DNA of 63,910 nt, the filler included, from Collodictyon triciliatum (lineage: Eukaryota): the NCBI GenBank assembly GCA_043381765.1. It is 11 parts of 11 records of this genome, joined end to end, with 100 filler letters (N's around TTAATTAATTAA, not from the genome) between each part and the next. Parts side by side here need not be neighbours in the genome. Positions count along the whole stretch, not along the records: positions 26,811 to 33,408 come from JBHJMP010004354.1; 10 more parts are not named here. One strand, 5' to 3'. Each line of letters begins with the position of its first letter. The stretch's first letter is position 1. The position numbers and the translations under genes are program-made. Below, piece after piece: positions 26,845 through 26,970 of this stretch. Below the pieces are notes generated by a model. It had not been told where the DNA came from. It did not search any database and saw nothing but the letters and a program-made list of their open reading frames with translations.

Positions 26845-26970
26845 CTTTACTGGCAAACTAGAAGTATACACAAATCTTTCGATTGGTAAACCAGGTGCGC
26901 TAGTATCCAAGGTCTCACCACTTTTTTCACAAAGATTGCGTAGTGGCGAAGACTGCCAGGAGAGACCCAA
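26845..26970 (-). ncRNA. Candidate Fanzor omega-RNA scaffold
   Basis: Lies just 3' of the Fanzor ORF. Minus-strand complementary pairs: GGTCTC/GAGACC (26962-67 with 26911-16), CCACT/AGTGG (26942-46 with 26918-22), CGCA/TGTG with G-U, ACTAG/CTAGT (26900-04 with 26857-61), an AATC-GAAA-GATT tetraloop hairpin, and CTGGCA/TGCCAG (26954-59 with 26850-55) crossing the first stem. Confidence 0.5.

Follow-up and report, generated by a model that had tools for sequence, protein, structure and literature searches.

Does the folded stretch on the minus strand right behind a Fanzor gene remnant of Collodictyon triciliatum belong to the guide RNA of a transposable element, and if so, where does that element end and which pairs make up the fold? 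A first-pass annotation of the window, that is, the whole 63,910-nucleotide stretch of DNA analysed here, had placed at positions 26845-26970 a candidate omegaRNA closed by a pseudoknot of the TnpB type. Our preferred reading, to which we assign a probability of about 0.8, is that positions 26976-26858 are the right end of a non-autonomous, decayed Fanzor1 DNA transposon, that they hold the template of an ancestral omegaRNA scaffold of four nested hairpins (SL1-SL4) devoid of a TnpB-type terminal pseudoknot, and that the guide was drawn from the flank following the terminal CTAG(T).

Genomic setting

Positions 26811-33408 of the window are contig C4354 (JBHJMP010004354.1) of the 75-Mb C. triciliatum assembly, and the right end under study lies 35-160 bases from the end of this contig at 26811. 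The window is made up of separate contigs joined by N44-TTAATTAATTAA-N44 linkers (at 6653, 13359, 20058, 26755, 33453, 40149, 46845, 53540, 60233 and 62440). As these linkers part the contigs, the exons at 23-26.6 kb, which resemble P-type ATPases in their motifs, are no neighbours of the Fanzor1 element; three short pieces of them scanned against Pfam gave no match. Elsewhere, a piece of a gene with F-box and armadillo repeats (PF00646, PF00514) occupies 33662-35704 on the plus strand, and long open frames of 562 and 901 aa at 53935-55623 and 56217-58922 on the same strand match no Pfam family.

On C4354 the truncated element adjoins the 3' piece of an unrelated poly(A)-tailed repeat that resembles non-LTR retrotransposons (28690-28955, plus strand). 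This repeat is very abundant (1211 genome candidates), its 5' truncation varies among copies, and duplications of ~15 bp were discerned by eye in other copies such as L037 and L057; it is often found inserted into the Fanzor1 element. Position 28955, considered as a left end of the Fanzor1 element, was rejected because it is the poly(A) end of this repeat. Upstream of the truncated element, 28960-30908 is a low-copy duplicated segment (five candidates, 79-93% identity).

A decayed Fanzor1 gene

The gene remnant extends over 26927-28689 on the minus strand and is truncated at its 5' end, as delineated by PDB matches and by alignment to its closest intact relative, P0001 (648 aa, 63% identical). 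Its longest open piece matches SpuFz1 (1.7e-7), PpFz1 (8.9e-7) and GtFz1 (6.2e-6). Both the rearranged RuvC triad and a C4 zinc finger are present (VDAGK, GDWS...DEFRTS, CCNC...C..C, TRDFNS), spread over three frames, with the D of RuvC-I at 27784-27782, the E of the rearranged RuvC-II (DEFRTS) at 27201-27199 and the D of RuvC-III (RD) at 27050-27048. The significant structure matches of P0001 are three Fanzor1 proteins only, SpuFz1, PpFz1 and GtFz1 (2e-28 to 4e-23, GtFz1 being best at 2.1e-28); its comparison with TnpB and Fanzor2 structure chains gave no match at E<=10, and the local copy of Pfam returned no family for the Fanzor pieces or for P0001. The remnant is a Fanzor1 gene, closer to Fanzor1 than to Fanzor2 or TnpB.

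This copy is dead. Its match to the complete copy L073 begins at element position 1646, the first ~1.6 kb on the 5' side being gone, and tblastn against P0001 yields three separate pieces, each in a different frame, interrupted by 20 stops and 2 frame changes. An intact reading frame is likewise missing from the 17 family copies checked, in which the longest stop-free stretch is 90-228 aa. The reading frame of the family enters the folded segment and ends inside it at a TGA (26929-26927), and the tail of P0001 is similar. The first-pass distance of ~40 nt between ORF and structure is correct for the frameshifted frame of this copy, which stops at 27011-27009, but not for the family frame.

The right-end boundary of the family

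The right end has 344 candidates in the genome, and the family is also present in two further contig sets of uncertain type. Copies are ~91% identical to the majority sequence (17 checked), and those with both ends mostly span 3.4-3.7 kb between the left conserved block and the right end. We aligned 77 distinct copies, obtained from 96 loci with a match by reduction on their flanks, with one duplicated pair (L122/L141) left in. Conservation drops sharply after CTAG, at 26858, and the right end of the element reads CTTCTAG at 26864-26858 on the minus strand. End statistics were taken from 111 distinct copies, in which each end was assigned to whichever site a few bases around best resembled CTAG; under this placement, which favours the motif, 68 of the 111 end in exact CTAG and 7 in CTAA, and a T follows at +1 in 95. 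The first-pass annotation was right that this is the right end of a Fanzor element, and the conserved segment gives way here to variable flank. It had put this end near 26850 and the start of the guide at TAAAGCG (26849), both of which lie beyond the family boundary.

Just inside the left ends (L086-L115, L149-L168) sits a (GTTT)n microsatellite whose length differs widely among copies; over the first 270 nt of the element, identity between copies is 71-77%, as against ~85% in the body. Terminal inverted repeats are absent from the 20 copies with both ends (best match 11-14 of 22), and there is no sign of a TA duplication, as A at +2 (41/72) is no more frequent than elsewhere in the A-rich interval. 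A supposed tandem junction at L286 was rejected, since no left end follows it.

The first 12 flank bases (26857-26846, minus strand), which in this copy contain TGCCAG, start with T, are AT-rich and often finish in TAAA; they may reflect a target preference, an eroded duplication or a fuzzy end. Across the 111 copies the AT content is 80.3% at +2 to +12 and falls to 63.2% at +13 to +30, with TAAA peaking at +8 to +11. This pattern raises the possibility that the scaffold reaches 12 nt past CTAG, the T...TAAA interval being what is left of a target duplication, a motif of the terminus or a fuzzy end inherited from the parent, with the guide starting from ~26845. It would agree with the tendency of the left flanks of complete copies toward AAAT-like endings, with the inclusion of target duplications of up to 12 nt in the Fanzor1 scaffolds described in PMC10711439, and with the 11-12-bp patterned duplications of MCi-2, which is described in PMC3627910 as having no TIRs. 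However, target-site duplication was not significant in any test of flank pairs (p 0.13-0.45): true left/right pairs matched no better than permuted ones in a set of 10 copies (p 0.24), in 10 complete copies (p 0.13-0.45), in 19 truncated copies (p 0.37) and in 13 copies (p 0.21 and 0.15) whose left junctions were set by eye. L153 and L161 are the only copies that look duplicated at the target. We regard the 12-nt extension as unlikely, though it survives better than the other alternatives considered below.

A strand-biased fold of four hairpins

The first hairpin starts at 26976, outside the segment originally delimited, which lacks its 5' arm; the fold of 26845-26970 is no better than chance (z -1.15 on the minus strand, -1.09 on the plus strand). 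When the segment is extended by 12 bases upstream and trimmed of its flank, this copy gives z -1.83 on the Fanzor strand vs +0.48 on the other. For the majority sequence of the family the folding energy is -45.8 kcal/mol, with z -4.91 on the Fanzor strand vs -3.41 on the other, and the fold consists of four consecutive hairpins; the per-copy median over the 77 copies is z -2.5 vs -1.0. The Fanzor strand folds better in 62 of these copies, in accordance with the minus-strand bias originally read from the G-U pairs.

All four hairpins lie on the minus strand. SL1 (26976-26950) is the 5' hairpin, with a 5-nt loop and 11 bp in the family, G-U pairs included, or 9 bp here, and its 3' arm contains CTGGCA. 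Its pair probabilities are 0.71-0.97 in this copy, 93% of its cells are paired in the family, and the probability exceeds 0.5 in 60/77 copies for the core and in 59/77 for the extension; the tail residues of P0001 fit this extension if the serines use TCN codons, a weak indication drawn from the protein sequence only. SL2 (26949-26915) comprises a 7-bp stem, an inner hairpin (26940-26928) and a bulge of six A (26927-26922), with a probability of 1.0 here and above 0.5 in 52/77 copies. SL3 (26913-26890), taken from the majority fold, is a weak hairpin of 6 bp that has a bulge of 1 nt and lacks one of its pairs here (0.01 in this copy, above 0.5 in 16/77). SL4 (26888-26869) is a sub-terminal palindrome with a GAAA loop (26880-26877), 8 bp long in the majority sequence and partly eroded here, which exceeds 0.5 in 39/77 copies and possibly serves also as a DNA terminator hairpin. 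An Rfam scan of 26811-27300 at E<=5 returned no match, and RNAalifold on the 77 copies gave a weak, uninformative consensus of -0.92 kcal/mol.

The stems named in the first-pass annotation can all be found letter for letter on the minus strand, and a part of them belongs to this fold. CCACT/AGTGG (26946-26942 and 26922-26918), the inner hairpin CGCAA/TTGTG (26940-26936 and 26932-26928) and the hairpin with the GAAA loop are conserved. GCAC/GTGT (26898-26895 and 26871-26868) is kept in just 7/77 copies, and the supposed first stem GGTCTC/GAGACC (26967-26962 and 26916-26911) exceeds 0.5 in 2/77 in an ensemble of nested folds; ACTAG/CTAGT lies at 26904-26900 and 26861-26857.

Tests of covariation in the family and in related loci

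Within the family there is no covariation for either the nested model, whose score is reached by 428/500 shuffles, or a crossing model (150/500), and hence the pairs are not proven by it. Little signal is to be expected from a star-like, neutrally decayed family of ~91% identical copies.

More distant Fanzor1 loci carry such a signal. P0001 alone as a query yielded no loci in metagenome or viral contigs; the relatives were retrieved with a 5-protein alignment, a 17-protein alignment being too diverse to search with. They comprise 10 viral loci and 80 metagenome loci (the best 80 of 471), L175-L264, at 37-49% identity to P0001. Their 3' ends present a lower stem GTCT..AGAC, an AC/GT stem, a variable inner hairpin and an A-rich bulge. 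Across 44 distinct rows, many of them close kin, pairing in this domain amounts to 98.4% and two-sided changes number 64, a result reached by 0/500 shuffles. The underlying alignment held 45 stretches (L182, mis-anchored L219, L243 and L245 left out; starts of L193, L199 and L258 set by eye; L183 and L259 without anchor), while automatic anchoring of the stem gave type-level values of p 0.22 with 6/74 loci mis-anchored and 156/5040 with 9/75 mis-anchored. These data support the view that the lineage has a structured RNA at this position. When the relatives were made into a covariance model, its 24 matches at E<=10 in the window did not include this copy, so a homology of SL2 would rest on layout and short motifs; in a joint alignment of family and relatives the stems are out of register. 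Many ORFs beside the right ends of L175-L264 look full-length, and these loci form a better candidate set for biochemistry than the dead family.

A putative omegaRNA scaffold and its guide

In favour of an ancestral omegaRNA scaffold at 26976-26858 are the drop in conservation after CTAG, the stability of the majority fold on the Fanzor strand and the preference for this strand in most copies. The first-pass suggestion of an omegaRNA template on the minus strand is likewise sustained by the conserved segment, the strand-biased fold and the Fanzor1 matches. Against it, SL3 is weak, part of the fold overlaps coding sequence, and the antisense strand of the majority sequence also folds well.

The Fanzor1 transposon, most likely ~3.4-3.6 kb long, reached hundreds of copies before it decayed. 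By analogy with known Fanzor1 systems, transcription, protein binding, the start of the guide and cutting can be pictured as follows. While the ancestor was active, a transcript that covered the last ~18 codons and continued beyond the element end would have given rise to the omegaRNA, its scaffold consisting of the nested hairpins SL1-SL4 and being followed by a flank-derived guide of 15-20 nt just after CTAG(T). Fanzor1 would bind SL1, with the flank serving as guide, and protein and omegaRNA together would cut sites that combine a TAM with the guide sequence, for example the empty donor allele. The predicted guide region would lie at 26856-26837 (minus strand) if the T at +1 joins the scaffold, as a base of the right flank or the target duplication does in the cases described in PMC10711439, and would start at ~26845 if the 12-nt interval is scaffold. 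The contig ends at 26811, beyond this region.

Alternative explanations of the right end

The terminus also resembles that of rolling-circle elements. The 20-nt palindrome lies ~12 nt before the end and is followed by CTAG, then T, which parallels the right end of Helraiser, where a 19-bp palindrome lies 11 nt before the end according to PMC4778049; thus both right-end features of Helitron1, a CTRR-3' end followed by T (with a placement that favours the motif) and a sub-terminal palindrome, are present. It is conceivable that a Fanzor1 of the mariner-type lineage of giant viruses moved into a Helitron1-like element, in which the last hairpin served both as DNA terminator and as SL4, and in which read-through passed into the parental flank, so that daughter copies could inherit the guide of their parent. 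As a DNA terminator the last hairpin would be free to flip its loop. Among 32 perfect-palindrome matches, 30 loci were read (L285-L314), of which 15 have GAAA in the loop and 15 the inverted TTTC; the inversions are unclustered on a star-like, poorly resolved tree (14 changes vs 15.7 in shuffles), suggesting repeated flipping, or micro-inversion, of a DNA palindrome. The flipping speaks against an RNA tetraloop under selection.

Read-through would account for the flank of this copy, which is like that of L269 (G000:C1937) at 14 of the first 16 bases (26857-26842) and then diverges, 0.28 such pairs being expected by chance. This recalls the parent-derived fuzzy ends described for Replitrons (PMC10288648), though one pair proves little. 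Long common flanks also occur in L122/L141, L024/L123 and L291/L292. Flank sharing as a general signature was rejected, since beyond a few duplicated pairs the counts are near shuffled levels.

The 5'-TC start after A that is typical of Helitron1 was seen in only L163 among 13 left junctions set by eye; the remaining ones, at eroded left ends, start with TT or TG. The genome has three PF14214 matches, one in a 1194-aa RepHel frame open to its contig end (L169, G000:C6377:627-4210); L317 (G000:C1887) is a related helicase piece. The RepHel contig has no end similarity to the Fanzor family, the termini of the RepHel element itself were not found, and no RepHel occurs in cis. Searches of the literature, as distinct from Repbase entries, brought up no description of a Fanzor end of the Helitron1 type, and the published Helitron-borne Fanzor ends considered in detail are Helitron2. 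We treat the Helitron1-like origin as speculative and probably incorrect.

Another possibility is an internal crossing fold that keeps the SL1 core and pairs GGGTCT with AGACCT and CCTGG with CCAGG, the SL1 extension and SL3 thus exchanging strands to give a double pseudoknot that would be new for Fanzor1. The two helices have 95.2% and 88.1% of their cells paired in the family, the GTCT/AGAC pairing coincides with the covarying lower stem of the relatives, and a tertiary contact between SL2 and SL4 is described for GtFz1 (PMC11423790). However, the model shows no covariation in the family, its first stem exceeds 0.5 in 2/77 copies and its second in 0/77 (in nested-only ensembles, a method that cannot score pseudoknots), and a recurrent CCAAG variant (11/77 copies) breaks the swap helix, whereas SL3 survives it by a register shift. 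The fit of the P0001 tail to the SL1 extension also weighs, if weakly, against the swap, and we judge this fold to be improbable.

A slightly slimmer chance attaches to the view that the conserved end acts chiefly at the DNA level, as a signal to a rolling-circle (HUH) transposase, the RNA fold being a by-product with no guide role. The Helraiser-like geometry and the repeatedly inverting loop would fit such a signal, but it would explain only the last 31 nt; moreover, SL1 and SL2 depend on G-U pairs and are strand-biased, and purified Fanzors are reported to carry RNA from the region adjoining the right end (PMC10530073).

The terminal pseudoknot of the first-pass annotation, with CTGGCA (26959-26954) pairing with TGCCAG (26855-26850), the element ending at ~26850 and the guide running from TAAAGCG, is very improbable: its six pairs do exist in this copy and are all kept in L269, two as G-U wobbles, but conservation ends at 26858, so TGCCAG is flank, while CTGGCA is an arm of SL1. 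A six-base partner for CTGGCA occurs within the first 11 flank bases in only 2/111 copies (this one and L269), the helix has 35.7% of its cells paired in the 77 copies vs 33-44% in slid controls, and 14% of simulations produce, by chance, a perfect match of some scaffold 6-mer within the first 11 flank bases. Once the upstream arm is part of the fold, the helix falls to a pair probability of ~0.02 vs 0.71-0.97 for SL1, and forcing its pairs costs 3.8 kcal/mol (both in the nested ensemble only). The analogy with TnpB also fails at the level of the protein, which is a Fanzor1: the descriptions of Fanzor1 omegaRNAs in PMC10432273, PMC10711439, PMC11832414 and section 6.2 of PMC13565253 report them without the pseudoknot of TnpB and Fanzor2. 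The family boundary largely refutes this pseudoknot, which is a fortuitous match to adjoining DNA.

Comparison with known systems

Among characterized systems, the omegaRNA of GtFz1 from Guillardia theta, the best structure match of P0001, offers a close parallel, with a long scaffold of four stem-loops at the 3' end of the element, SL1 being common to Fanzor1 omegaRNAs (PMC11423790, section 5), and, by eye only, a run of A beside its inner hairpin (PMC10432273, supplement). Unlike the dead copy studied here, GtFz1 is described as intact and active with a TTAA-type TAM, and its SL1 has 7 bp as against 11 bp in the family. SpuFz1, the best match of the RuvC piece of this copy (1.7e-7), belongs to SPu-1, which is likewise described as a Fanzor1-only element with many copies and no pseudoknot (PMC10432273, PMC3627910); SPu-1 differs by having TIRs and TA duplications, a scaffold of 75 nt and intact ORFs, whereas this family has no TIR. 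The giant-virus and metagenome loci are the closest ones retrieved, with the metagenome represented by the best 80 of 471, and in them too the ORF tail overlaps or adjoins the structured end. In contrast to this family, which ends in a hairpin and CTAG before T, they have near-perfect TIRs finishing in TA (scores of 25 of 30 or more in 7 of the 9 viral relatives checked).

ApmFz2 and the TnpBs of ISDra2 and ISXfa1 have in common with this family a RuvC nuclease guided by an RNA from the right end, with the guide taken from the flank, but their pseudoknot uses the last, element-fixed scaffold bases, whereas the partner proposed here is variable flank (PMC11832414, PMC10711439). Finally, Helitron1 (Helraiser), the Helitron2-borne CRe-1/2/3 and Replitrons resemble this family in the sub-terminal palindrome, the CTAG-3' end followed by T, the absence of TIRs and of detected target duplications, and the common flank of some copies (PMC4778049, PMC3627910, PMC10288648). 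The rarity of a 5'-TC start after A and the absence of RepHel in cis set it apart from Helitron1. Fanzors are known from Helitron2, mariner, MuDR and unclassified non-TIR elements, according to PMC3627910 and PMC10530073.

Conclusions

The segment is most likely an ordinary feature, the folded right end of a decayed Fanzor1 copy that held the template of a guide-RNA scaffold. It adds a putative Fanzor1 scaffold whose boundary is well mapped from more than 100 copies. Had a Fanzor1 RNA really contained a pseudoknot, this would have been at odds with the published view that the TnpB pseudoknot was lost in Fanzor1; the test was negative, and the result agrees with that view. If confirmed, the Helitron-like, non-TIR end would bear on the role of Fanzors in copy-and-paste elements that leave no empty sites, a question raised in section 6.2 of PMC13565253. 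The intact relative P0001 makes this lineage testable.
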